A stretch of DNA of 64,000 nt. Source: a virus. The position numbers were made by a program, and so were the translations under genes. Positions 2,519-59,981 of the stretch are shown here, piece by piece. Each line of letters opens with the position of its first letter. The stretch's first letter is position 1. The stretch lies in the IMG/VR virus record IMGVR_UViG_3300009080_000001, positions 1-64,000 of that record; one strand, written 5' to 3'. Below the pieces are notes generated by a model. It had not been told where the DNA came from. It did no database searches and worked only from the letters and a program-made list of their open reading frames with translations.

Positions 2519-3784
2519 TTAAGCTACTTTGATGTTGATAAGAACACAAAGAGATGCTGGTCTAGCAGTAAATAATGCTTGATCAGTGTAACATCTCATT
2601 TCGATACCATGAGCGTTCTCAAGAAGCTCTAAGTACTCTTCACCATCTGGTCTTTTGAATGTTACTTCTTCAGAACCAATTCTCTTAAGATCTTTCTCAC
2701 AAGCTAAGTAAGAGTAACCTTCTTTTACGAAAGTAGAAGCGATTACTTTGATAGATCCGTTTTGTCCGTGGAACATGATTTCTCTTGATCCATTTTCTTG
2801 TTTAGCTGGAGAATATGAGCTATCATATTGTCTCTTAGCGTCGATTTCAGTTAATAGTGAGTTCCATTGCTTAGGGTTAACATAACAAGAAACTTCTTCT
2901 TCCATTAGACCTTTCTCAACCATTGCGGCGATACCTTCTTCGATTTTACCAAAAGAAAGAACAGCAGCGTTAGTAGTTGCATCAGTTCCAACTTCTACGA
3001 TAGACCCTTGAAAAAGAGGCTCTGCAGAGTTGTTGATTCCAAATAGGCTTGATGTTTCAGTTGCGATTCCGTGAATTCCTAAAAATTCATTTCTTACACC
3101 AGCGTTAGCAGCAGCACCTTTGAAAAAGATAACGTCGTCAGCTTGAATTTCAGCAGCACCTAAGTTACCAGCAGCTTTCTTAAGAGTAACTGATCTGTCA
3201 GCTAAAGAGTAACCTTCAACTTCGTAAGAAGCTACTAAAGAACCTGCAGAGAATACTTCAACTTCTGCATTAGATGTACCATTCCAGATACCTGCAGACC
3301 ATTCAGCTTCTTGAATTGAAACTGCTTCAGATGGAGCACCACCAGTAATATCAGTCTTAACTACACCAATTCCAGATTGTCCGTAGAACATTTGTACTTC
3401 TAATCTGTGGTATACTGATTTAAGCATGTTACCTACCATAAGGTCCATTGCTTTTTCGATTGCTTGCTTGTCAGAACCTGAACGAGATAGAGCACCGATA
3501 GAGATAGCAGATCTTAATACTAATTCTCTAGCTTTGATTGAAGCTTTTCTCATTTTGAATTCTTTAACGTCGTTAAGTGTAAAAAGAGATCCATCCTCTC
3601 CACCATAAGTAAATCCTGATTCTAAAGATAGGATAACTGGTTCATTGTAGCTATCTCCTACTTTCTTAGATGTGTCAAATTTTACTGCGTTGTAAAGTTT
3701 AACATGATCAGGTACTAATTGTTGTACTTTGTCAGCGTATCTTTCCTTAAAAAGACCGTTTAGCGTTGATACTTCGTTTGCCAT
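2519..3784 (-). CDS. Major capsid protein
   Basis: 421 aa after scaffold and portal; strong RBS, own promoter motif and terminator; HK97-like C-terminus. Confidence 0.8.
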   Translation of the reverse strand: MANEVSTLNGLFKERYADKVQQLVPDHVKLYNAVKFDTSKKVGDSYNEPVILSLESGFTYGGEDGSLFTLNDVKEFKMRKASIKARELVLRSAISIGALSRSGSDKQAIEKAMDLMVGNMLKSVYHRLEVQMFYGQSGIGVVKTDITGGAPSEAVSIQEAEWSAGIWNGTSNAEVEVFSAGSLVASYEVEGYSLADRSVTLKKAAGNLGAAEIQADDVIFFKGAAANAGVRNEFLGIHGIATETSSLFGINNSAEPLFQGSIVEVGTDATTNAAVLSFGKIEEGIAAMVEKGLMEEEVSCYVNPKQWNSLLTEIDAKRQYDSSYSPAKQENGSREIMFHGQNGSIKVIASTFVKEGYSYLACEKDLKRIGSEEVTFKRPDGEEYLELLENAHGIEMRCYTDQALFTARPASLCVLINIKVA

Positions 3785-5104: not shown

Positions 5105-5425
5105 TTAGTTTTTTTCGTGTTTCTCTTGAGTATAATCTTTAGAGCAGATACCAAAAGTCCTGTCTCTAGATTCTCTTTTTAAATTTACTCCGAAAGATTC
5201 TAACTTAGATCTTGCTGTTCTTTTTAAAACATTTAGATTTGTATATTGTTTACTTTTAAAAACAAATTCTTTTGTTCTTTCGTTTCTGATACCATAGATC
5301 ATCTCTTCAAGGTTAAGTACTATTTTATATTTAGCACCAGTACGTTCTGATACATACTGGTTCAATGAAATAATGCAATTATCTTTAGTCGGATGATCGA
5401 CGTATCTAATCCTGTTTCCAGCCAT
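5105..5425 (-). CDS. Hypothetical protein
   Basis: 106 aa, coupled to portal stop. Confidence 0.6.
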   Translation of the reverse strand: MAGNRIRYVDHPTKDNCIISLNQYVSERTGAKYKIVLNLEEMIYGIRNERTKEFVFKSKQYTNLNVLKRTARSKLESFGVNLKRESRDRTFGICSKDYTQEKHEKN

Positions 5426-7533
5426 TAGCTACCGCCACTGTTCTTAGCCATAAGTTCGGCTGGATTAGTTGGCTGAGGAGGTAGTGTACCATCGCTTACT
5501 CCAGCAGGTTGAGCTGGTTGTGGTAAGTTCTGTGGTCCTAAATTAGGGTCCATCATCTGAGCTGGTCCACCATCAGGCATATTAGTTCCTGCTGGTTGTT
5601 GTGGAGCAGGAGCGTTACCTTGAGGTCCACCCGGCTGTTGCGGAGGTGGAGCTAGTGGTTGCTCTCCTATGATAGATAAAATATTCGGATCAGTAGTCTG
5701 TAATAAATTAATATGTTCTTGAATATGATCTAGTACCGATTGAACTAGTTCCGGATCTCTTCTTAGCATATAGTCAGAAAGTACTGATCTATGTTCTTTA
5801 ATATGTAATGAGTGATGGTCAGAGAATATAGCGATAACTTCTTCATCTCTTACTAGAGCTTCGTTCTCACCTTTAATAGTCATCATCTCGTCCATCTTAC
5901 CTTCAGTTAAGTAGTCAAGATTACCAGTATTCATAACCATTAAATATTTCTCAGGACTATCAATAAGTCCCATCTGTAAAAGGTTCTCTGCTACTTGAGC
6001 ACGACCTGCAGTAGTTTGCATTAATGCGTTTCCAACATCAACAACAACTCTGTTAATAGATTTAATATCGTCTGACTTAAACTCTTTCATTTCGGTCGAG
6101 TTATTTAGTCCGGAAATTGCAGCAATTCTAGGAACATTTGCAAAGTCTTTTAATAAGTTAATTAGTCCAGTTCCAACGCTTTCTAATAATTGAATATAAG
6201 ATTGCTGAAGTCCAGATACAAACTGTAATGCTTGTGACTGTACTAATGCTAATGCGTTACCTGATCTTAATGATTGTTCTGGATTACCTCTTGCAACAGA
6301 GTTTACACCAGAAAGTGTTTCCATAGTTTTCTCAAGAAGTGACATCAGTTGATATACTTCTGGAGATGTCTTTACTAAATCTAGAGGTTCTGGTTTACCC
6401 ATTCCCGGATCGTATTCAATAAAGTTCATACCTTCTGAAACCTGTTCAACAGAAACTCCGTTTCCTCTTGGGTTTAGAATGTTTACAACACCAAATGCGT
6501 TAACATTTGTTGCAGCCGTAGAATAGAGACTATTCAGCATATCTTGAAGTGGTAACAAATCAAACATGTCTGTATAGCCATATGGTGTTCCCATAATTTC
6601 ACTTGGAGTAATTCGATGCACTGGCAAGTCTCTATACGGCATTACGGTATCTTCCATGATAGCATCAGCGTCAGCATAAAGAACATAACGTCCATTAGGC
6701 ATTGACTCTGTTCGCTTATGAAAAAATTCATAAACTGGGATATCTTCGGTTTGTTCAATCGGGTGCGAAAGAACTCTCCTACTTCTTTTTTCTTGTTTAT
6801 CTTTTGTGTCTTGGCTTAACAGTTCTTCTGCAAGTTCTGGGTACTTGGCAGCTAAATCGAACTTGTTAATAAATGATCTACAAAGAACCCAATCGTTCTT
6901 CATATAATCTTCTTTCGTAACATCAAATACTACGTCAAATGGTGAGAGTAATGTAAATTCTACATCTCCTTCATAAATAGGAAAAGGTTTGAGTGTTTCA
7001 CCCTTCTCTCCTAAAGGTTCTCCGTCTTCATCATAGTCGTGGATGTCTTCTTCATCAACGTCAACATAGTCATAAATCTTGCCTTTGGTACTATTCCACT
7101 CTAATTTAATGTATCCTGAACCCAGAACAATGGCGTACTCTACGGCCTTCTTTATGATTGTCTCAAGCTTCATTTCACGCATGTAATAGTCCAGAAGTCC
7201 ATTTCCGAGTTCAGCTTGTAGTAGTGATTTTCTATCTGTATTGATAGCTCTACACTGGAAGCTAGGTCGTGTGCTTGTTACCATAACGTGAATATGTCGT
7301 GCTAAATTTCTATAGTGATTTACGGCTAAGTTTACAAGTTCACCTTGTTCTCCGCCTGTAGATAAGAAATGACCCTTACCATAGTATTGACCGTAATAAG
7401 CTTTCCAAGACCTTTTGATCTTGTCAATATAATCCGTATCCATAACACCTTTAAACCAGTGTTGTGACTTTCCGATCAATGTTTCTACGCATTTATCCGC
7501 TTTCTCAGCAGCGAAGTATTTCTCTCTACTCAT
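5425..7533 (-). CDS. Portal protein (P22-like)
   Basis: 702 aa after terminase; GSGYIKLEW, SPFDVVFD, LSGVNSVARG motifs; Pro/Gln-rich tail. Confidence 0.85.
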   Translation of the reverse strand: MSREKYFAAEKADKCVETLIGKSQHWFKGVMDTDYIDKIKRSWKAYYGQYYGKGHFLSTGGEQGELVNLAVNHYRNLARHIHVMVTSTRPSFQCRAINTDRKSLLQAELGNGLLDYYMREMKLETIIKKAVEYAIVLGSGYIKLEWNSTKGKIYDYVDVDEEDIHDYDEDGEPLGEKGETLKPFPIYEGDVEFTLLSPFDVVFDVTKEDYMKNDWVLCRSFINKFDLAAKYPELAEELLSQDTKDKQEKRSRRVLSHPIEQTEDIPVYEFFHKRTESMPNGRYVLYADADAIMEDTVMPYRDLPVHRITPSEIMGTPYGYTDMFDLLPLQDMLNSLYSTAATNVNAFGVVNILNPRGNGVSVEQVSEGMNFIEYDPGMGKPEPLDLVKTSPEVYQLMSLLEKTMETLSGVNSVARGNPEQSLRSGNALALVQSQALQFVSGLQQSYIQLLESVGTGLINLLKDFANVPRIAAISGLNNSTEMKEFKSDDIKSINRVVVDVGNALMQTTAGRAQVAENLLQMGLIDSPEKYLMVMNTGNLDYLTEGKMDEMMTIKGENEALVRDEEVIAIFSDHHSLHIKEHRSVLSDYMLRRDPELVQSVLDHIQEHINLLQTTDPNILSIIGEQPLAPPPQQPGGPQGNAPAPQQPAGTNMPDGGPAQMMDPNLGPQNLPQPAQPAGVSDGTLPPQPTNPAELMAKNSGGS

Positions 7534-8114: not shown

Positions 8115-9587
8115 CTATTTTTTTTCAAGTTTTAGCAGTTTCTTAATGAAATCAGCCGCTTGTGAGGCGTTTTTAGTCTTAAATTTAGGACTCATGAAGG
8201 TATTTTTGTTAATATCTAGTCCATAGTTCTCTGGAAACGGGTTTGTACCTAATCTTACGTTCCTAACTAAGTATATAAGCGCATCTAAAGCATCTCCATG
8301 TGATCTTAATAGTCCAGCAGAGTCGTTTCCTTTCAAATGCTTGAATTTACCTGTAAATGTTCCTTGTTTAGTATAGTGCCATTGAGTATATTTAAGATGG
8401 TATATAAGATTCTTACATCTTGGGTGTATTATGATCCTTTCAGATTCTACCCATCTTCTTACAGTATCAACAGCTTGCTCTTTATTATGTTTTTCAGTAG
8501 GCATGAAGTTCATACCATAAAACCTAGATAAATCGTTTATAAGCTTAAGGTCATTATCCATTACTCTTAAATAAGGCTTCTGCTTATCTCCGAGGGCCGT
8601 AACAAACCTCATCTCTTCTTTAACCATTATTTCTTTATGTAATTTGTCCGTTGTTAGTTCTGGACCATTAATAACGTATTCATCTGTAATTACTAGCTTA
8701 TTGAGCTTCTTATCATAGTACGAGAATAAGAATACAGTTAGATCGTGAAATCCAACATCTCCAGAGGTATAGAACTCACAATAATCTGGAACTTCCATAT
8801 CCTTAACTACGGACTCTTCTACGGCCGCAAATTCTGGGACTACGTTGGCTTCAGATACATTTGGAATCTCACACAAATACTCGCATCTAAATTTGACATT
8901 CTTCTCTCCACCCGGATACCTAGCTACAATCCTAGCTCTCTGCTCTTCAGAAACCATAGGCGATGTAGTGTAGTCAAACTTTAAAAGCTTTCCAGCAGCT
9001 TCTAGAGGGTTCACAAAGAACTCATGAAAGTCATGGTTCGGATCTTTGTCGTTTGGTGTGGATGCTAAATATATTTTACCACCAGTTGTATCGGTAGTAG
9101 GGGCAAGTACTGAATATACTACAGTCTCTAGCTCATCCATAAATCCTGCCTCATCACATATACATAAATCAGCCGATCCCCCACGGAGGTTATCGTAGTT
9201 TCCATTATCTGTACCTGCGACTTGTATTTCAGATCCATTAGGAAATAGCCACACCTTCTCTTGAGTCTTCCACTCCGGTTTCATATCCTCCGGACAGTTA
9301 GCTATGATCTCACGTATTCTAGGCTTTATAACCCTCTCAACCATTTTCTGTTGAGGACATGCATATTTTACAATAGCTCCGGGTTTTAGTAAGCAGGTTT
9401 CAATTGCCATAACACATAGAGTATACGACTTACCATACTGTCTGGATATCAGACATGCAGATATATCATCACCAGTATTGTTGAAATGTTTATAGATTTC
9501 TTTTTGATTACCCTTAAGTTTCCAAGAAAGTATACCTTCCCTCCAAAGAGCGTCAATTGCTTCTTCTTCGGTCATTTTCTTAGCCAT
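8115..9587 (-). CDS. terL: Terminase large subunit
   Basis: Walker A SRQYGKS, LRG..DLCICDEA Walker B, ASTP coupling motif, nuclease acidic residues (GDVG, DALDALIY). Confidence 0.92.
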   Translation of the reverse strand: MAKKMTEEEAIDALWREGILSWKLKGNQKEIYKHFNNTGDDISACLISRQYGKSYTLCVMAIETCLLKPGAIVKYACPQQKMVERVIKPRIREIIANCPEDMKPEWKTQEKVWLFPNGSEIQVAGTDNGNYDNLRGGSADLCICDEAGFMDELETVVYSVLAPTTDTTGGKIYLASTPNDKDPNHDFHEFFVNPLEAAGKLLKFDYTTSPMVSEEQRARIVARYPGGEKNVKFRCEYLCEIPNVSEANVVPEFAAVEESVVKDMEVPDYCEFYTSGDVGFHDLTVFLFSYYDKKLNKLVITDEYVINGPELTTDKLHKEIMVKEEMRFVTALGDKQKPYLRVMDNDLKLINDLSRFYGMNFMPTEKHNKEQAVDTVRRWVESERIIIHPRCKNLIYHLKYTQWHYTKQGTFTGKFKHLKGNDSAGLLRSHGDALDALIYLVRNVRLGTNPFPENYGLDINKNTFMSPKFKTKNASQAADFIKKLLKLEKK

Positions 9588-11633: not shown

Positions 11634-11706
11634 AATATACTGAATAATATTTTATTTGTCAAATACTATTTTAATCCTTGACAGTACTTGTACTAACTGT
11701 TATCTT
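11634..11706. promoter_or_regulatory. Divergent sigma70-type promoters
   Basis: Minus: TTGACA (11662-57)-17-TATATT. Plus: TTGACA (11678-83)-17-TATCTT with ATG at 11712 (likely leaderless). Confidence 0.7.
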
Positions 11707-12720: not shown

Positions 12721-12997
12721 TAGATATCCAATAGTTAGGCGTAATAATCTCAACGTAATGATAATTAGAACAGAAGGAAATGGTGACAATTTGGACTTTA
12801 TAAGCTTTGTAGAAACTGACGATGGTATTAAATATGAAGATACAAGTGGTCATAGAATGCCTTTAAAGGATATAATTATAGAATCTAATAGCGGAACTTT
12901 TGGCCTAGAGAGCGTTGTTAAAACTAGACTAGCAGAAAAAATGTGCAAGGTACTAGGGGAAACTGAGAACTATTATATTATTAAGGGAGAGCAGTAG
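12707..12997 (+). CDS. TRLARK-box protein
   Basis: VVKTRLAEKMCK at C-terminus. Confidence 0.7.
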   Translation: MATSNRYPIVRRNNLNVMIIRTEGNGDNLDFISFVETDDGIKYEDTSGHRMPLKDIIIESNSGTFGLESVVKTRLAEKMCKVLGETENYYIIKGEQ

Positions 12998-13203
12998 TGG
13001 GAATGGGAACTATAAGAGTACCTAGAGATGAAGAAATACCTATATACAAAACGGTAAATGATACTAGGCTCGCTCGTAAAATGTTCCCGGATTTTACTGA
13101 TAATAAAGATGGAACCTTAAGAATAATAACTGGTTACGGACCGGAGCCTGTTATAGTAGGTTCAGAAAAGGGATTTACATATATAGGAACGCCAAAAAAA
13201 TGA
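12997..13203 (+). CDS. TRLARK-box protein with capsid-like peptide
   Basis: VNDTRLARKMFPD followed by EPVIVGSEKGFTYIG. Confidence 0.75.
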   Translation: MGMGTIRVPRDEEIPIYKTVNDTRLARKMFPDFTDNKDGTLRIITGYGPEPVIVGSEKGFTYIGTPKK

Positions 13204-13469
13204 GAATACCACCAAGAGCTAAGAAATCACAAGAGATTATAGACCAAATGGTTAACTGGTTGAACTATTATATGGGAACTAGGCCCGAATTTAAGGACTT
13301 TATCAGAAATGATATCAAATACTTAGAAGAATACCTATCAGAAATTAGTGAAGAGCATAAAGTTCACAATATTAGATTTGCTACTAAGTTAAAGAGTCTT
13401 TGGAAGTGGGAATTAGAGGAAAAAGAAAGAGAAATCAAGCAATTAAAGGCGGAATTGGATGAAAAATAA
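13200..13469 (+). CDS. Hypothetical protein
   Basis: Coupled ORF. Confidence 0.6.
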   Translation: MRIPPRAKKSQEIIDQMVNWLNYYMGTRPEFKDFIRNDIKYLEEYLSEISEEHKVHNIRFATKLKSLWKWELEEKEREIKQLKAELDEK

Positions 13470-13950
13470 GAAAATAGGTCAGGGATTAGGGACACAGATC
13501 GATGAAAGGTCAGGAAACGCTAGAGCTTTGGCTATGTCGCAACAATTACAGCAAATGGGAAACCTTTCTGGTCAGACACAATTAGATGTTCTTTACCAAA
13601 AAAGAATGGCTGAGTATGAGAAACAAAAAATGGAATATGAAAATCAAAAAAGACAACATGAGATGGTAAAAGAAGAAGCACTTAGTAGATTAGACGAAGT
13701 ACTAGAAAATTCTGGAATACCACTAAAAGGATCTGATTATTTTAACATATATACCGATATATTCACAGAGGTAGACGCTATAAGATGTTTTGGTAAGAAT
13801 TATAATCCTAAAGAGGTTTTTAATGAAGTATTTACAAAGTATATGAATAATAACTACGATGAAATAACAGATACTAGGCTGGCAAGAAAGATGTATCCAG
13901 ACGCTAGGCCTAATAAAGACGGTAAGTTATACGTGAAAAAGGAAAAATAG
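13459..13950 (+). CDS. TRLARK-box protein with portal-like peptide
   Basis: RSGNARALAMSQQLQ near N-terminus; ITDTRLARKMYPD at C-terminus. Confidence 0.75.
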   Translation: MKNKKIGQGLGTQIDERSGNARALAMSQQLQQMGNLSGQTQLDVLYQKRMAEYEKQKMEYENQKRQHEMVKEEALSRLDEVLENSGIPLKGSDYFNIYTDIFTEVDAIRCFGKNYNPKEVFNEVFTKYMNNNYDEITDTRLARKMYPDARPNKDGKLYVKKEK

Positions 13951-14235
13951 TTGAAAAATAAGCGTAGAATAGAAATATACCCAACAAATAGAATGGCAGA
14001 ACACGTAATACGAGAATTCCACGATAAGAATGCGGAATTCGTATCATTCTTCGACCTTGGAATGAAAACACTATGTTACAAAGGCACATATATAGGATTC
14101 AGAGGTGAAACATACTCCAGAAGACTAGAAGGTTTACAGTTTGATGAGCTATATGTCCACCCAGATTGTAAATATAGGGGAGTTTATATCTCAAGAGCTA
14201 TTGACAACGGTGCAAAGATAGTGTATAAAATATAA
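13951..14235 (+). CDS. Truncated terminase-ATPase-like protein
   Basis: YPTNRMAEHVI ... LEGLQFDELYV ... GAKIVY parallels TerL motifs. Confidence 0.5.
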   Translation: MKNKRRIEIYPTNRMAEHVIREFHDKNAEFVSFFDLGMKTLCYKGTYIGFRGETYSRRLEGLQFDELYVHPDCKYRGVYISRAIDNGAKIVYKI

Positions 14236-14248
14236 AAGGAGTTAAATA

Positions 14249-15055
14249 ATGATAAAAAGAGATATAAATATGTTAGAGTATCTATGTAAAGTTAGCCCAA
14301 AAGAATTTACAAGAAAAACGAGAGAAAGCGGGCCTATAAGAACATATTTCTACAGAAAATGGATATATTCTCCGATGGGAGGTTTCGAAACATGGGACAC
14401 AATGGCAGAAGTTAATCTAGAAAAATATAAAGTTACATACTATAACGGATGGGGGAAGAGGTAAATATGAAAAAATTTAAAGTATTATGGGAAGAGAGAG
14501 TTGAGAAATCTGTGTGGATTGAAGCCTCCTCTGAAAAAGATGCTGTAGAAAAACACAATGAAGGCGAATATAGTAATGACTCAGTAAATGAAGAGTGGTT
14601 AGGATTCGACGACTCTTACGTTGTAGATAGCAAGGATATAGAATAATGTTCGACTATATGGTAAAAGTACTGCCGAACGGTAACTTATTAGTGCGTGACA
14701 GCCATTCTAAGACATCCGAGGCTATTAAGGCAAGTGAGATATCGGATTATTTCCAAAAGGCTTTAAAAGAGCAATTAGAGGCTGAGAAAGAGAATGACCA
14801 GAAACATAAGGATGTTCGAGAGGGAGCCTTTAAATTATGAAAAGAATAGAAAAAATGATGACATACAGGAATGATCCGTATTCTAATAATATAATAGAAG
14901 ACGATTATCAGTTAGTAGGTATAGATTATATAGTCTCTGCTTGGAATTGGGACCACTCTAAATCAAACGACGAATATTACTGTGTAAAATTAGCTCATTT
15001 TGGAAGTATTGTCCACATAAAGAAGGAAGACCTAGATAAAAAGGTAAAAAAATGA
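14249..15055 (+). CDS. Four small hypothetical ORFs (14249-14464, 14467-14646, 14646-14840, 14837-15055)
   Basis: Tightly coupled ORFs with RBSs. Confidence 0.55.
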
Positions 15056-15381
15056 ATAAAACATATACAAGAATGCAAAAACAAGTAGTTAACGACACTA
15101 GGTTAGCTAGGAAGATGTATCCAGACTTCACTGATAATGAGGATGGTACTATCACAATTGAGGTTGAAGTAATCTCAGACGGATTCGGGTCTGGTGGTAT
15201 ATTGACTGCTACAGACGTACAAGATGCAATAAATGATATGCTGACCAAAGGCTTTGCTGCGCCATCAGAAATCATAGTAAACCCTAAACAATACGCAGAG
15301 TTACAGAAGTTAATAGATCCAGATGACATGGATATTAAGGTTAGTAACTACTGTCCTGATGACAAGGTATATATAAAATAG
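15052..15381 (+). CDS. TRLARK-box protein with capsid-like fragment
   Basis: N-terminal VNDTRLARKMYPD; IVNPKQYAELQKLID. Confidence 0.75.
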   Translation: MNKTYTRMQKQVVNDTRLARKMYPDFTDNEDGTITIEVEVISDGFGSGGILTATDVQDAINDMLTKGFAAPSEIIVNPKQYAELQKLIDPDDMDIKVSNYCPDDKVYIK

Positions 15382-41582: not shown

Positions 41583-43955
41583 GTGAAAGAACGTAAACTA
41601 GTAATAGTTGATAATATAAAGAAATTAGCAGAAGCTATAACACATATAAATACTTACGATATATTAGCATACGATATAGAAACTACTGGACTTATTCCTA
41701 CTAAGGAAAAGGTTATAGGGTTCTCAGTATGCGGTAAAGTAGGTGAAGCATATTATATTCCACATTTAACTTGGGATACTACCAAAAATAAACTAGTCGA
41801 AGTATTCAGCTTCAGTAAAATATCCTCCATTTTAAATTCGTTAAAAGGTAAAGAGTTACTGATGTGGAACGGTAGTTTCGACGTTAGATTCACCAGAGAT
41901 TATTTCGATATAGACCTTACAGAAGAATTATTCGCAGATATTATGTTAATGAAACATACAGTAGAAGAAGAGGGTCAATTTAGCTTAAAAGGCTGTGCAA
42001 TCCAGTACCAAGAAGAGATTGGACTAGATGTAGCAGAAGACGCTAACAAAGAGCAGATAGCCTTAAAAGAGAACGTAGCTAAGAATGGCGGTACAACTAC
42101 TAGAGCTAAGTACGAGATGTATAAGGCTGATCTAGACGTTATGGGTGTGTATGCCGCAGCCGATGCAGACCTTACATTAAGACTTGCAAACCTATTCAGA
42201 GAAAAGCTTGAAAAAGAGGAATTAGAGGACTTCTTTTATGATGAAGAAGTTATGCCTTTATATAAGTATGTAACAATGACAATGGAATCTAATCCAGTAC
42301 AATTAGATATTGATAAACTTAAATACTACAAACATAAGATAGAGCAAGATATAGTTAAATTACATGATGCTATTGTTGCAGACTTATTAACAAGCGTTAA
42401 AGTACAAGCATGGTTAGAAGAAGTAGCTAAGACTAAATATCCGCCAAAACCTACTGGAAACTACGCTCAAAGAGTGGTAGAGAAATTCGGACTAGATTTA
42501 CCAAAATCAGCATCAGGGAAGTACAGTATTTCCAGAAAGAATGTTGAGAAATTACCAGATAGTGACGCTAAAAGCTTCTTATTAAAAGAGAGTAATATAG
42601 AGCCGGAATTTAAGGTAAAAGATACAAGGTTAGCACGTAAGATGTATCCGGGCTGTGTAGAGAAAGATGGTTGGTTAGTACCTGCTCAAGATATGTCAAG
42701 TATTTCAGTTGAATTATGGGAAGAACATAATGGTGGTAAAATCAATATCTCATCTAAAAAGCAAATGGGTGAAATAGTATTTAATTACATGAAAGTTAAG
42801 CCTTTAACTAAGACCTTAAAAGGTGCGCCACAATTTAACGATGCTTTAATTCAATATTTAGCTGATAATCAGTTTTCTTGGGCTAATGACCTTAGTGACT
42901 ACAATAAGCTAATTAAGATCAAGTCAGCATATATCGATAGATTCTTGGATAATAACCAAGATGGTAATTATTACTTTTATTACAAACAACATGGAACATT
43001 ATCAGGACGATATAGTTCTGACGCACAGCAGCTACCAAGACCTAAAGAAGATGGAGAACTATCACCATTAGTACTTGAATATAACAATGCTATTAGGTCG
43101 TTCTTTGTCGCTGGTGAAGGTCGTAAGTTTATTGATGCCGATTATGAGTCGTTAGAGCCACATGTATTTGCACATGTATCAGGTGATGATGGGTTGAGAA
43201 ATATCTTCCGTAAAGGTCATGATTTTTATAGTACTATTGCTATTCAAACAGAGAAGCTTGGGGAATTTAGTGCGGATAAGAAGTCCGAAAGTTACCTTGG
43301 GAAATTAAACAAACCATTACGCCAGAAGGCTAAGGCTTATAGTCTAGGCGTTCCATATGGCATGACACCTTATGCCCTAGCTAAGACATTAGAAGTGGAT
43401 GAGAAGGAAGCTAAGAAGCTATATGATGGGTATTTAGACGGGTTTCCAGAGCTTAAGAAGTGGATGCAGAAGAGTAAGAGAGATGCACAGTACAAAGGAT
43501 TCGTTAAGACGCAAACTGGACGTATTAGGCACTTAGATAGGGTTAAAGAGCTACATGCTGAACATGGTGAGAAATTACTTAATTTTAAATACCGTAAAAA
43601 GCTTGAAAAACAAGTAGCTAAGAAACTTGGTGGATTTGAAGCATCTAAAGAAGTTAAAGGTATGTACCTTGATTATAAGAATGGTATAAATAATAGCCGC
43701 AACTTTCAGATTCAAGGATTATCGGCTAGTATTGTAAATAAATCCATGATACTGATTATGCAGGATTTTAGGGACGAGAATATAGACGGTTACGTATGTG
43801 CAACAGTACATGATCAGATTATTGTTAACGTATCTGATTTAGATCTTGACAGAGCTATAGAAATAGTGCAATATAGAATGACAACGGTTGTTGAGCTATC
43901 AGTTGATCTGAAAGCTCCGCCAGAAATTAGCGATAATTTTAGAGATGGACATTAA
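41583..43955 (+). CDS. polA: DNA polymerase family A with 3'-5' exonuclease and internal TRLARK box
   Basis: DIETTG exo I; SGRYSS; DADYESLE motif A; KAKAYSLGVPYG motif B; HDQ motif C. Confidence 0.95.
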   Translation: MKERKLVIVDNIKKLAEAITHINTYDILAYDIETTGLIPTKEKVIGFSVCGKVGEAYYIPHLTWDTTKNKLVEVFSFSKISSILNSLKGKELLMWNGSFDVRFTRDYFDIDLTEELFADIMLMKHTVEEEGQFSLKGCAIQYQEEIGLDVAEDANKEQIALKENVAKNGGTTTRAKYEMYKADLDVMGVYAAADADLTLRLANLFREKLEKEELEDFFYDEEVMPLYKYVTMTMESNPVQLDIDKLKYYKHKIEQDIVKLHDAIVADLLTSVKVQAWLEEVAKTKYPPKPTGNYAQRVVEKFGLDLPKSASGKYSISRKNVEKLPDSDAKSFLLKESNIEPEFKVKDTRLARKMYPGCVEKDGWLVPAQDMSSISVELWEEHNGGKINISSKKQMGEIVFNYMKVKPLTKTLKGAPQFNDALIQYLADNQFSWANDLSDYNKLIKIKSAYIDRFLDNNQDGNYYFYYKQHGTLSGRYSSDAQQLPRPKEDGELSPLVLEYNNAIRSFFVAGEGRKFIDADYESLEPHVFAHVSGDDGLRNIFRKGHDFYSTIAIQTEKLGEFSADKKSESYLGKLNKPLRQKAKAYSLGVPYGMTPYALAKTLEVDEKEAKKLYDGYLDGFPELKKWMQKSKRDAQYKGFVKTQTGRIRHLDRVKELHAEHGEKLLNFKYRKKLEKQVAKKLGGFEASKEVKGMYLDYKNGINNSRNFQIQGLSASIVNKSMILIMQDFRDENIDGYVCATVHDQIIVNVSDLDLDRAIEIVQYRMTTVVELSVDLKAPPEISDNFRDGH

Positions 43956-43956
43956 T

Positions 43957-44511
43957 ATGGGTAAATTTTCAAGAAAAGAACAATGGAGTCTTATAGAGAA
44001 AGGTAAAAAAGGTTGTTCTGTTTGTGGTGATATTTTAGAATTAGATTGTTTTAGAAAAACTGGAAAAGTAAATAAACAAGGAATTGTAGGTTACAGAAGC
44101 AATTGCAGGTACTGTAAACACGTAGATCAGATGAGTAGAAAAGGACACAATCCTAGGAATAAAGATGATTTTTGGCATAGACATGGACTAAGAGATGAAG
44201 GGTTCATAGATAAAGCAGGAAAAGCAAGGAACTACGAAAGAGATAGAGTTAATTTTATAAGGAGAGTTTATAATGTTGACTTTAAAGAAGCTTTAGATTT
44301 ACATAAAAGATCACTACATGATACTTGTGAGATATGTGGAAAAGGGTTTGAAGACAACGGTAAAGCTCTAGCTGTAGATCACTGTCACAGTAACGGGCAT
44401 GTTAGAGGTATATTATGTGAAGTATGTAATAAAGGATTAGGACACTTTAAAGATAACGTAGATGTTATGAAAAATGCTATCAAATATTTAGAAGAAAAAA
44501 GGGAGAAATAA
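43957..44511 (+). CDS. Endonuclease VII-like HNH nuclease
   Basis: CEICG..LAVDHCH..VRGILCEVCNKGLG. Confidence 0.85.
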   Translation: MGKFSRKEQWSLIEKGKKGCSVCGDILELDCFRKTGKVNKQGIVGYRSNCRYCKHVDQMSRKGHNPRNKDDFWHRHGLRDEGFIDKAGKARNYERDRVNFIRRVYNVDFKEALDLHKRSLHDTCEICGKGFEDNGKALAVDHCHSNGHVRGILCEVCNKGLGHFKDNVDVMKNAIKYLEEKREK

Positions 44512-45178
44512 TGAAATATGAGTCTGAATTTAGAATAAAAGAAAAAGAGTTTTACCCAAGAGAAAAGCACAGTCATAAGAAAGTGATTGATGAGTTAGCA
44601 AATATCGTTAAAAGAGCTGATTTAGAGATTGATGAACTTGAAATATCTAGAGAAGTGGCGTTTGAACTACATCAAACTAGATTTAAAGAGCTATTAGAAG
44701 CTCATTCCGAAATAAGAACTTATCAAGCAATTTCGACTATTTTAGCATTAGGAGTAATATTGTTAGGATTAATAGTACTAGTATAACAGAATAGGACATT
44801 GGTATGAGCTACATTAGAAGAATACTTAACTGGTTATTATCATTTTTTCAAACATCAGAAACACCTGAATTAGACGAGAAAATAAACCAGAAAAAGAAAG
44901 AGATTAAAGAAATTGACAAAGAACTCGAAAAAGAGTACGATAATGTTAAAGATTCTATGGAGGAATGGAAGTGATTATTTTTGTTATAGCTTGGATTATA
45001 TGCGGATTATTTGGGTCTTATTTGTATTTTAGACAATTTAGTGATAAGAACGGATATATGGAAGTTAAGGTAGATGATATAATTATAATGTTTTTATTAG
45101 CTGCGCTTGGTTTTGGAGGCTTAATAGTAGGGTTACTTAATAATAACGATAAGGTGTTATTTACAATAGGAAGGAAGG

Positions 45179-53018: not shown

Positions 53019-53243
53019 ATGATCGGTTGGAAAAACGTAAAAGATACAAGATTAGCTAGAAAGATGTTCCCTGACTTTAAAGAGTCCGAAAAAGACGGGT
53101 ATATTATGATCCCAGAACCTATAGATTTAACTAATACTACGTTTGCTGAAAGAGCACATATAGCTGAACAATTGTTACAATACGGACTTATTACTACAAA
53201 AGAAGAATATTTAAAAATAATTGATAATATCCAACAAAAGTAG
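53019..53243 (+). CDS. TRLARK-box protein with portal-like fragment
   Basis: N-terminal VKDTRLARKMFPDF; AERAHIAEQLLQYGLI. Confidence 0.75.
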   Translation: MIGWKNVKDTRLARKMFPDFKESEKDGYIMIPEPIDLTNTTFAERAHIAEQLLQYGLITTKEEYLKIIDNIQQK

Positions 53244-58600: not shown

Positions 58601-58659
58601 TCTTGTTCTTCTACAGCAGAGAAATCTAAATCATCAAAGTTATCTTCTTTTTTAGCCAT
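55609..58659 (-). CDS. Internal virion/ejection protein with pesticin-like muramidase domain
   Basis: LEGF..QGYIP...KSGVTIANALDLGQ; Ala/Gly-rich helical N-terminus. Confidence 0.7.
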   Translation of the reverse strand: MAKKEDNFDDLDFSAVEEQDNFDDLDFAPVDDEISMTETAALAGGQGLTMGMLDELYGMFAAKGGASPRQMIQDPEGSAAKEKEMMESYVKERDVAREHIKAAKKENPGTAITAEALGGIIPAAFTGGGAAAAKTGAALAGKAPMVKSLSGLAKEGAKFGGAYGFGESEGETLPELAQDTAVGATTGALAAPAMSLGLKAGVKGVKKVGEGLSDLAEKFPTISKPFKFAKEHGMTSNKERSKIMEKEVKSLVDDIKKAFKDIGMDDKLAAQKAARAEETLNLTGDLQAIANGLKEEAGMLTGSASNKIMKMADQVETMAVGNQTKAAQKLVEKTKDEIQKKMDASTRKETMAPIKAESKIAKHILKSGDELENIQEGQFQFDDLAEIPWDTKGGNLSRSRAKFTEEVLDEAGEPIKQSYQKQFIDDTTPFSPSSIKVGKDGDKIVAQYMNEATGEVFNKYGALPPKGLNFEKMDIDTLQKWVKTVGGKAFDRNDPEKDMYIELWKLGRDKITELLPLLSEKKAGQAKLYQLMDIMNIDKSVLSKNLSHPDMVKLIKGIPSKLGTEKDYLQRHIVKEGDDISKGLDRLELTADVDNILEGSISHTGEFTRAGVMQKATGILSEGMGSLYGKGERLSKMLTKPVSAVSDMSSKLLSKMSPEKINQFRSSMVKSENKGLQMYADELERLVNSDPESRDKIMFSLSQAPAFRKSLGKFIKEMDDQMSSDIGLPENELNDLLDSYKGTIVPERQPDSVEESGDYSDNIDKDLMHRLEGFKEQGYIPKSRSGKVLGKSGVTIANALDLGQRDNLNDLDLDPAIKEKLTPYLGKKKQEADEFLAENPLDLSGDINENGIVDAEEVENATAGAYYDKVQSNFNKNNKHDKEFEDLPDPVKTVLYSKQFQTGKLGNNLINAASNDEDYSDVVDVLKSSTNTRRQEEGKYLEQKLEELQKAKDRESKQLGSGALPGTERSSLDDLMGKLQGLDVDEADKAEMEEAAFGGDMSKLQELIDQYKGIVG

Positions 58660-59981
58660 TACATAAGTCCTTTAGCTCTTAATCCTTTTATAATCCTTTC
58701 TCTTGAAGCGTTAGGATTCTTTTCTTGCATCTTTTGAATTAACATTTCTGGATCAGCTTTGGTAGATTCTTTCTTACCTTTTAACAGATCTGATGCGTAC
58801 TTATCTAAGTCTCTAAACCCAGCTTTCTTCAAGTTTGGTATTTGTGTTTTATCTACAATTTGTAATTCACCTTTAGGGTCAACTATAGTAGTTTGTTCAC
58901 CTCTTAATATAGGATGATCAAATCTATCTAAGTTTCCGTATTTATCAACATAATCAGCTTTAGCTTGTGATACTATCCTATCTTTTAATAGTGAACTTTT
59001 AGATCCTAATAGTATTTGTACGTTAGTTTCGTCATCATTTGAAACAGAAGCCTGAGTTGATTTCCATGCTCTACGTTCAGCATCTGAATCTACAGCCTTA
59101 CTCATACCAGCAAATGTACTAACCATGTTCTTTAGGTCAATATCTTTAAACTTAGCATCTAATGACTCGGTATCTTGACTTACATATTTAGTTAGTCCAC
59201 CTAATGTAGCAATAGGACCAGTTCCTAAAGTTTCATCTTTACTATATTGTAATTGAGCGTTCATAGCTTCGTCAACTTTTGACATATTGTTTGCATTTGT
59301 TTGTAATGCTTTCTGAGACTCAGCGAAATCAGCAGCTTGTTTCTTATGTACTGCTTTGCCGAATTCAGTTTCTTTTGGTTTCTTACCTTCTGATTTAAGT
59401 TTCTTTTCAGCTAACTCTACTTGCTTCTTTTGGTAAGGAGTCATCTCATCTTTCTTACCCATAGCCATATAATTCTGATACATCTTTTGAAGGTTTTGCA
59501 TACCAGATAACTCTTCTTTTTTCTTAGAAGATCTTTCTTTTTTTAAGTTTTGAGCATGATTTGATTTTATATCTTTAAATTGACTTCCTTGAGCATAGTT
59601 TAGTAAATTATGTGCAGATGCTAGTACGTCTGGTAAATGATCCTTCCAACCTAACTCTTTTTCAGGTTCAGCTAGTTTAGCTTTATACTGATCGATTAGC
59701 TTAGAGTATTCCTCTTTAGCTTTAGGTTCCATATAAGGAGATCTAGCATCTTCATTAGTCTGTTCTATATCTCTTTTAGTTTGATCTGGGTTTTGTTCAG
59801 AAGAGGCAATTCCCCTAGCAACTCCAGCAACATCTTGAACAGTTTCTCTTTGAGTTTCAGCAGTAGCCGTAGCTTCCTGAGCCATATCCTCTTCTAACGG
59901 AGTAGTTACATACTCTTCTCTTTCTGGAGATCCTCCCATCATAGCAGCTTGTAACTTTTTTAAGTAATCCATATCTTCCAT
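58659..59981 (-). CDS. Internal virion/ejection protein
   Basis: Helical protein in podovirus-type ejection cluster. Confidence 0.55.
   Translation of the reverse strand: MEDMDYLKKLQAAMMGGSPEREEYVTTPLEEDMAQEATATAETQRETVQDVAGVARGIASSEQNPDQTKRDIEQTNEDARSPYMEPKAKEEYSKLIDQYKAKLAEPEKELGWKDHLPDVLASAHNLLNYAQGSQFKDIKSNHAQNLKKERSSKKKEELSGMQNLQKMYQNYMAMGKKDEMTPYQKKQVELAEKKLKSEGKKPKETEFGKAVHKKQAADFAESQKALQTNANNMSKVDEAMNAQLQYSKDETLGTGPIATLGGLTKYVSQDTESLDAKFKDIDLKNMVSTFAGMSKAVDSDAERRAWKSTQASVSNDDETNVQILLGSKSSLLKDRIVSQAKADYVDKYGNLDRFDHPILRGEQTTIVDPKGELQIVDKTQIPNLKKAGFRDLDKYASDLLKGKKESTKADPEMLIQKMQEKNPNASRERIIKGLRAKGLM

Follow-up and report, generated by a model that had tools for sequence, protein, structure and literature searches.

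A portal-like segment in the head of a TRLARK-box early protein: a borderline match in an uncultured phage

Portal sensing and short-motif look-alikes

Host immunity targets free portal protein, which is sensed by the STAND NTPases Avs4 and Avs11 (bioRxiv 10.64898/2026.01.04.697583). Avs sensors are reported to envelop whole folds over broad interfaces, unlike Lit and CapRel, which respond to short motifs (bioRxiv 10.64898/2026.01.04.697583). In the two short-motif cases—the Gol peptide of T4 with the Lit protease, and the capsid protein with CapRel—what is recognized is a short and conserved part of a virion protein, and the target is the capsid protein, not the portal. We know of no sensor of a short portal motif, and the papers that we found describe no phage-encoded look-alike peptide for either Gol/Lit or CapRel. 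Small proteins with one interaction element that compete with a larger protein are familiar from eukaryotic microProteins and from engineered dominant-negative fragments.

The protein considered here, box163, is a 163-aa early accessory protein of an uncultured phage, and a 20-residue segment near its N terminus resembles a stretch of the portal of the same phage. Whereas Avs4 and Avs11 recognize the whole portal fold, box163 resembles one helix of it at most, and short-motif sensing is the only known kind of sensing that a 20-residue look-alike could plausibly address. Unlike the microProteins and dominant-negative fragments, which belong to another domain of life and have no shared docking tag, box163 carries a tag found in 28 ORFs of its phage, and competition on its part would be an analogy with those proteins. 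At the level of sequence, P22-like portals (PF16510) have at the junction of a loop and the long wing helix the same (S/A)G(N/Y)A(L/I) core as box163; box163 itself has no portal fold and no Pfam match, and the mapping of this core to a "tunnel loop" draws on a low-confidence model and general knowledge.

A conserved body with a lineage-specific head

The virus record is 84,758 bp long with direct terminal repeats, and the window—the whole stretch of DNA analyzed—comprises its bases 1–64,000. Late genes occupy the minus strand, over the first 11.4 kb and again from 55.6 kb on, and the plus strand between 11.7 and 55.3 kb carries about 105 early/middle ORFs, among them box163 (13459–13950, +). 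A near-consensus sigma-70-type promoter, identified by consensus match only (11678–11706, +; TTGACA-17-TATCTT with TG), heads this block, and early expression of box163 is consistent with its position there. Two back-to-back promoters of this type, at 11634–11662 (−) and 11678–11706 (+), with 11/12 and 10/12 consensus matches, lie where the plus-strand accessory block diverges from the packaging genes.

The ATG of box163 overlaps the stop of the upstream ORF (13200–13469) by 11 nt and is preceded at −13 to −6 by an AAGG/GGA Shine-Dalgarno-like stretch, and the overlapping arrangement recurs in orthologues, so that translation of the head is plausible, as is the status of box163 as a genuine gene. 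In an AF2 model (10-row alignment, pLDDT 71), residues 1–15 are predicted to be disordered. They are followed by the portal-like head segment (residues 17–36; 13507–13566, +), for which a helix is predicted with low confidence at residues 16–32 (pLDDT 44–60), and then by a long, E/K/Q-rich, coiled-coil-like stalk helix (residues 38–85; 13570–13713, +) and a helical hairpin (residues 91–132; 13729–13854, +; helices 91–111 and 117–132), both kept in orthologues. The C terminus is formed by what we call the TRLARK box (residues 133–160; 13855–13938, +), modeled as a strand (133–136), a helix (139–145), and a second strand (157–160). The sequence-only reading had described a coiled coil followed by a C-terminal box, and the model agrees with it on both elements. 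No family matched box163 in Pfam (E ≤ 1) or PHROG (E ≤ 0.1), a Foldseek comparison of the model with the PDB gave no match with E ≤ 0.001, and a search of the ESM Atlas returned unnamed viral clusters only, all below 0.8. We also considered box163 as a member of the portal family itself (PF16510, phrog_156) and rejected this assignment: neither profile matches, AF2 models a helical bundle with the box attached, and the portal-like residues number only 20.

The same box, recognized with an HMM, is found in 27–28 ORFs of the genome. It is a motif of about 25–30 residues, (V)K(D/N)TRLA(R/K)KM(Y/F)P..DG.L.I, to which residues 133–160 of box163 conform (...EITDTRLARKMYPDARPNKDGKLYVKK). It usually stands at the C terminus, with N-terminal placement in ORFs 12997, 15052, and 53019 and internal placement in the family-A DNA polymerase (ORF 41583–43955). 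Over 27 copies, mean conservation at the first, second, and third codon positions is 0.78, 0.86, and 0.62; third positions are freer than first and second positions, and the box is therefore a protein motif and not a DNA element. It is strongly expanded in this phage, with 28 box ORFs as against 4 in a relative with 71% portal identity and none in one with 58% (the relatives compared being G001, 76.7 kb, and G002, 80.1 kb). A search of PDB sequences and profiles with the box profile found nothing. The internal copy in the polymerase is a consensus TRLARK box at 42600–42692 (+), corresponding to approximately residues 340–370, where the Pfam DNA_pol_A match (369–787) begins and after the 3′–5′ exonuclease domain (7–210).

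Relatives of box163 separate the body of the protein from its head. The identical protein occurs on 10 contigs, accompanied by a 99% identical variant, and in searches of 5.8 billion clustered and 1.84 billion representative proteins the head was met only in box163 itself and this 99% copy; a word-index search with residues 1–136, phmmer, and a scan of viral contigs likewise returned the protein itself or coiled-coil noise. A profile search recovered eight database orthologues of 155–156 aa (P0007–P0014) that share the stalk, the hairpin, and the box, and tblastn located syntenic orthologues in two related contigs (L010, 1515–1982; L004, 3426–3896), in each case after an ORF of 88–89 aa and with 26–29% identity over residues 53–161. 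In these orthologues, as in the L010-type sister phages, the box co-varies (DLAKFMYPD...DGFIYVKK). The orthologue heads (MSDKPENG...SIGELEANF...) are conserved among themselves and unrelated to residues 1–45 of box163, and RSGNA occurs in none. The portals of L010 and L004 are nevertheless 91% identical to the portal of this phage, with residues 423–442 unchanged. Compared with virion proteins, the orthologue heads gave noise only (at most 9–10 identities in 20; Smith-Waterman E ≥ 1e-3).

Judged from these sequences, the head of box163 is a lineage-specific swap on a conserved body, and the protein as a whole is a modular early accessory protein in which stalk, hairpin, and box are conserved and the N-terminal head is peculiar to the lineage. 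The swap neither proves nor excludes a mimic, and it removes the conservation argument that backs the sibling fragment proteins of this phage described below. A 100-aa protein from an ENA contig (P0015) is a chimera whose C-terminal half, with hairpin and box, follows the L010-type orthologues and whose N-terminal half is wholly different, which gives further evidence for head swapping on a box163-type body.

This architecture bears on the proposal, made in the sequence-only reading, that the head relates to sensors of the Avs4 type. Such a protein would act as a decoy for STAND-type portal sensors, its head occupying the portal-binding site of the sensor early in infection. Portal-sensing Avs4 and Avs11 do exist (bioRxiv 10.64898/2026.01.04.697583), and the sigma-70-like promoter at the head of the block is consistent with the early expression that a decoy would call for. 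On the other hand, box163 offers at most 20–30 portal-like residues and no portal fold (Pfam and PHROG blank, a helical bundle in AF2), and does not present the extended surface that the sensor envelops. A helix of 20 residues is poor bait for sensors that read whole folds; for that reason we consider an Avs4-type decoy very unlikely, and the link to Avs4 is without support.

The portal match measured against chance

The portal gene (5425–7533, −) encodes a P22-like protein of 702 aa (Pfam P22_portal, 2e-13; phrog_156, 2.5e-26), whose nearest cultured relative, in a phage of Silvanigrella aquatica, is 28% identical. Among 17 IMG/VR contigs with portals 57–92% identical to it, residues 423–442 (6208–6267, −) form the most conserved 20-residue window of the protein (rank 0 of 683; mean identity 0.96 versus 0.70 overall). 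An AF2 model from an 8-row alignment (pLDDT 37, used for secondary structure only) places a helix at residues 391–413, a loop at 414–424, and a helix at 425–465, an order that we read as the stem helix, the tunnel loop, and the long wing helix typical of portal folds. On this model, residues 423–442 would span the junction at which the tunnel loop ends and the long wing helix begins. Sequence and profile searches of the PDB with the portal found nothing.

Residues 17–36 of box163 (13507–13566, +) read RSGNARALAMSQQLQQMGNL, and residues 423–442 of the portal (6208–6267, −) read RSGNALALVQSQALQFVSGL. Both sequences, their positions, and the ungapped identity of 12/20 are as the sequence-only reading had given them, and the BLOSUM62 score of the pair is 50. 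The (S/A)G(N/Y)A(L/I) core is common to box163, this portal clade, and remote P22-like portals, and the SQ..LQ part, also present in box163, is specific to the phage's own portal clade. Within this stretch, related portals show substitutions such as N426T, V431I, and F438Y. In an alignment of eight portals, box163 matches 11 of 15 invariant positions; the four that it does not match (L428R, Q432M, S440G, and G441N) count toward coincidence. The predicted helix starts at the same point in box163 and in the portal, the portal model being of low confidence.

For the single pair the match is clearly non-random. Default BLASTP did not report it, an omission that we put down to two-hit seeding because one-hit seeding recovers it (23–25 bits, E = 0.002–0.007). 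The sequence-only reading had allowed that the match might be lost on correction for Q/A/L-rich composition, and for the single pair it survives, with E = 0.002 under compositional matrix adjustment. When the head (residues 1–46) was shuffled, a Smith-Waterman score of at least 51 was reached in 8 of 5000 trials and at least 12/20 identities in none of 5000; shuffles of the whole protein reached the score in 10–23 of 1000 (p = 0.01–0.02) and the 12/20 identity in 0 of 2000. Shuffled early ORFs compared with the portal never gave 12 identities (0/15750). Among 3990 natural pairs of early and late proteins, two stand at 12/20, both on the portal (box163 and ORF 53019), and six pairs follow at 10. 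The best 20-residue window against this portal has at most 10 identities for ORFs of three related phages and at most 11 for reversed natural ORFs.

Other statistics are less favorable. By Smith-Waterman, box163 comes third when 106 small ORFs are compared with the portal, and Karlin-Altschul statistics give the pair approximately 6e-3, placing it within 98 early–late pairs with E < 0.01 where 40 are expected, many of the 98 being coiled-coil matches. Box163 also matches two late proteins (58659–59981 and 63846–64265) with shuffle p values equal to or better than that of the portal. Residues 26–111 align with the second of these, a 139-aa protein on the minus strand, with a gapped Smith-Waterman score of 52 that 1 of 1000 shuffles reached; the identity is low, and this match is probably noise. 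An HMM built from 18 portals gives box163 a score of 4.7 bits (E = 0.05 among 142 ORFs), second after ORF 53019 at 20 bits, and 15 of 5000 whole-protein shuffles reached the same score. Most other late-protein profiles have presumably chance matches at E = 0.03–0.09. Among the small ORFs of relatives G001, G002, and G005 we found no portal-like fragments, the sole match to the same portal region (E = 0.049) being a beta-rich late protein of G005.

These results leave room for a reading in which the likeness is a coincidence: the N terminus would be a fast-evolving, Q/A/L/G/S-rich helical segment unrelated to the portal, on a TRLARK-box adaptor with some other target, and a likeness of this kind would be expected when some 100 small ORFs are compared by eye with some 40 late proteins. 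We judge its probability to fall slightly below an even chance. It draws on the position of the pair in the bulk of Smith-Waterman and Karlin-Altschul noise, on the HMM matches of similar strength obtained with most late-protein profiles and in G005, on the comparable p values against the two late proteins, and on the absence of the portal-like segment from the orthologues. Composition also steers chance matches toward the relevant part of the portal: 35% of high-identity head shuffles land in portal residues 401–450, versus 7% expected by length, and the coincidence of the match with the most conserved window is thus largely compositional. Against this reading, no composition-matched shuffle reached 12/20, and no natural ORF did so besides ORF 53019, itself a portal fragment; tail extrapolation yields an estimate of only about 0.05–0.1 chance pairs at this level per genome; and the portal is also what ORF 53019 copies.

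The mismatches sit on the hydrophobic face of the portal helix (122 versus 118 degrees) and are polar in box163, a turn that fits what is expected of a helix removed from the core of its protein, and the clustering of identities on one face of the helical wheel is not significant (p = 0.10). At the DNA level, identity is an uninformative 35/60, with identical codons at 6 of the 12 shared residues and no trace of recent copying. Corrected genome-wide, the match holds when identities are counted (top 2 of 3990 pairs; 0/15750 shuffles) and does not hold by Smith-Waterman/Karlin-Altschul or by profile, and on these sequence comparisons we regard it as borderline after correction for multiple tests. 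The portal derivation of the head is not established because its significance depends on the metric. Of the earlier description of the segment as a mimic of a portal loop or helix, the placement stands, the portal stretch lying at a loop-to-helix junction in the low-confidence AF2 model. If the likeness is coincidental, box163 is merely another accessory protein of the box family, and the case carries a methodological lesson: 12/20 in Q/A/L-rich helices looks striking, with an apparent significance that shifts approximately fifty-fold with the statistic chosen.

Tagged fragments of virion proteins and the possible role of the head

Box163 is not the only box protein of this phage with a resemblance to a virion protein. 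ORF 53019 (53019–53243, +), of 74 aa, joins an N-terminal box to a robust copy of portal residues 498–535, detected by both BLASTP (1.4e-7; Gumbel p = 7.5e-6) and HMM (20 bits). The portals of five relatives match this portal-like segment as well, and six homologues of ORF 53019 (69–93% identical) all keep it; relatives G001, G002, and G005 yielded no orthologue. For the major capsid protein (ORF 2519–3784), an HMM built from 15 relatives has as its best non-self matches ORF 15052 (6e-4) and ORF 12997 (0.03), two box ORFs (15052–15381, +, and 12997–13203, +) in the same operon as box163. By these sequence matches, this phage does encode pieces of its virion proteins in tagged form.

Within this class box163 is the weakest candidate. 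It resembles ORF 53019 in its TRLARK box, in its resemblance to the portal, in a best window of 12/20, and in matching a helical region that is highly conserved in the portal. Unlike box163, which is borderline, ORF 53019 is significant by every test and its segment is kept in homologues. Conservation of the segment, which characterizes the tagged self-fragment proteins, is absent from box163, for whose head the protein searches found no homologue bar the 99% copy. The layout differs as well: in the three stronger cases (ORFs 53019, 15052, and 12997) the box is N-terminal and the fragment stands right behind it in a mini-protein of 68–109 aa, whereas box163 has the reverse order, with an N-terminal head, a 95-residue helical body, and a C-terminal box.

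Taking the sequence evidence together, we hold it to be an even question whether the head is genuinely portal-related, by copy or by convergence. Descent from the portal or convergence on it, any binding, and any function of the head are things that we infer. If the relation is real, the head would copy one face of the most conserved element of the portal, running from the tail of the tunnel loop into the initial turns of the long wing helix. The box would dock box163 to a partner common to all box proteins; the stalk would space the head from it and perhaps multimerize the protein; and the head would offer a portal-like helix face to whatever normally binds the corresponding portion of a free portal subunit, in competition with the portal. 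The partner that we would favor is a host protein sensing a short portal motif, in the style of Lit/Gol or CapRel, followed by a partner in portal assembly or packaging. In its full form—a selected look-alike of an exposed loop–helix face, tethered by a stalk to a docking box and acting as an early antagonist of a host sensor of a short portal motif—this proposal is, in our estimate, unlikely.

The head might instead act on the portal itself. Tunnel loops and adjoining helices of neighboring portal subunits line the channel side by side. A dominant-negative element could exploit such packing, if it holds here, with the head slotting between portal subunits in place of a neighbor's loop and helix and so delaying or blocking ring assembly, whether in competing related phages or as a means of timing the phage's own assembly. 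Throughout the portal clade the copied stretch does not vary, so that relatives would be affected too; by the same token the phage's own portal would be poisoned as well, and the sister phages are without this head. We rate this possibility as distinctly improbable.

Should the reading as an early antagonist of short-motif sensing be correct, it would supply a portal counterpart of sensing of the Gol/Lit type, and box163 would join a tag-addressed panel of self-mimics (capsid, capsid, portal, portal). Any real mimicry of the portal by the head would mean that two portal pieces and two capsid pieces are carried on small early proteins with one docking tag, a natural panel of protein-fragment competitors that would point to host or phage factors reading short invariant portal motifs. 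In the titles and abstracts of the papers that we found, there was no description of phage-encoded look-alikes of a phage's own portal, nor of such a fragment panel.

The same profile comparisons yielded two observations on other late proteins. With the profile of the large terminase (ORF 8115–9587), the best match was ORF 44511–44786 (E = 0.048), and the neighbor of box163 (ORF 13951–14235, +) was absent from the best 4 matches. The profile of a 165-aa late protein (1860–2357, −) matches two regions of a 593-aa late protein (genome positions 78139–79920, −) with E = 1e-10, and on this sequence evidence the two proteins have a repeated domain in common.
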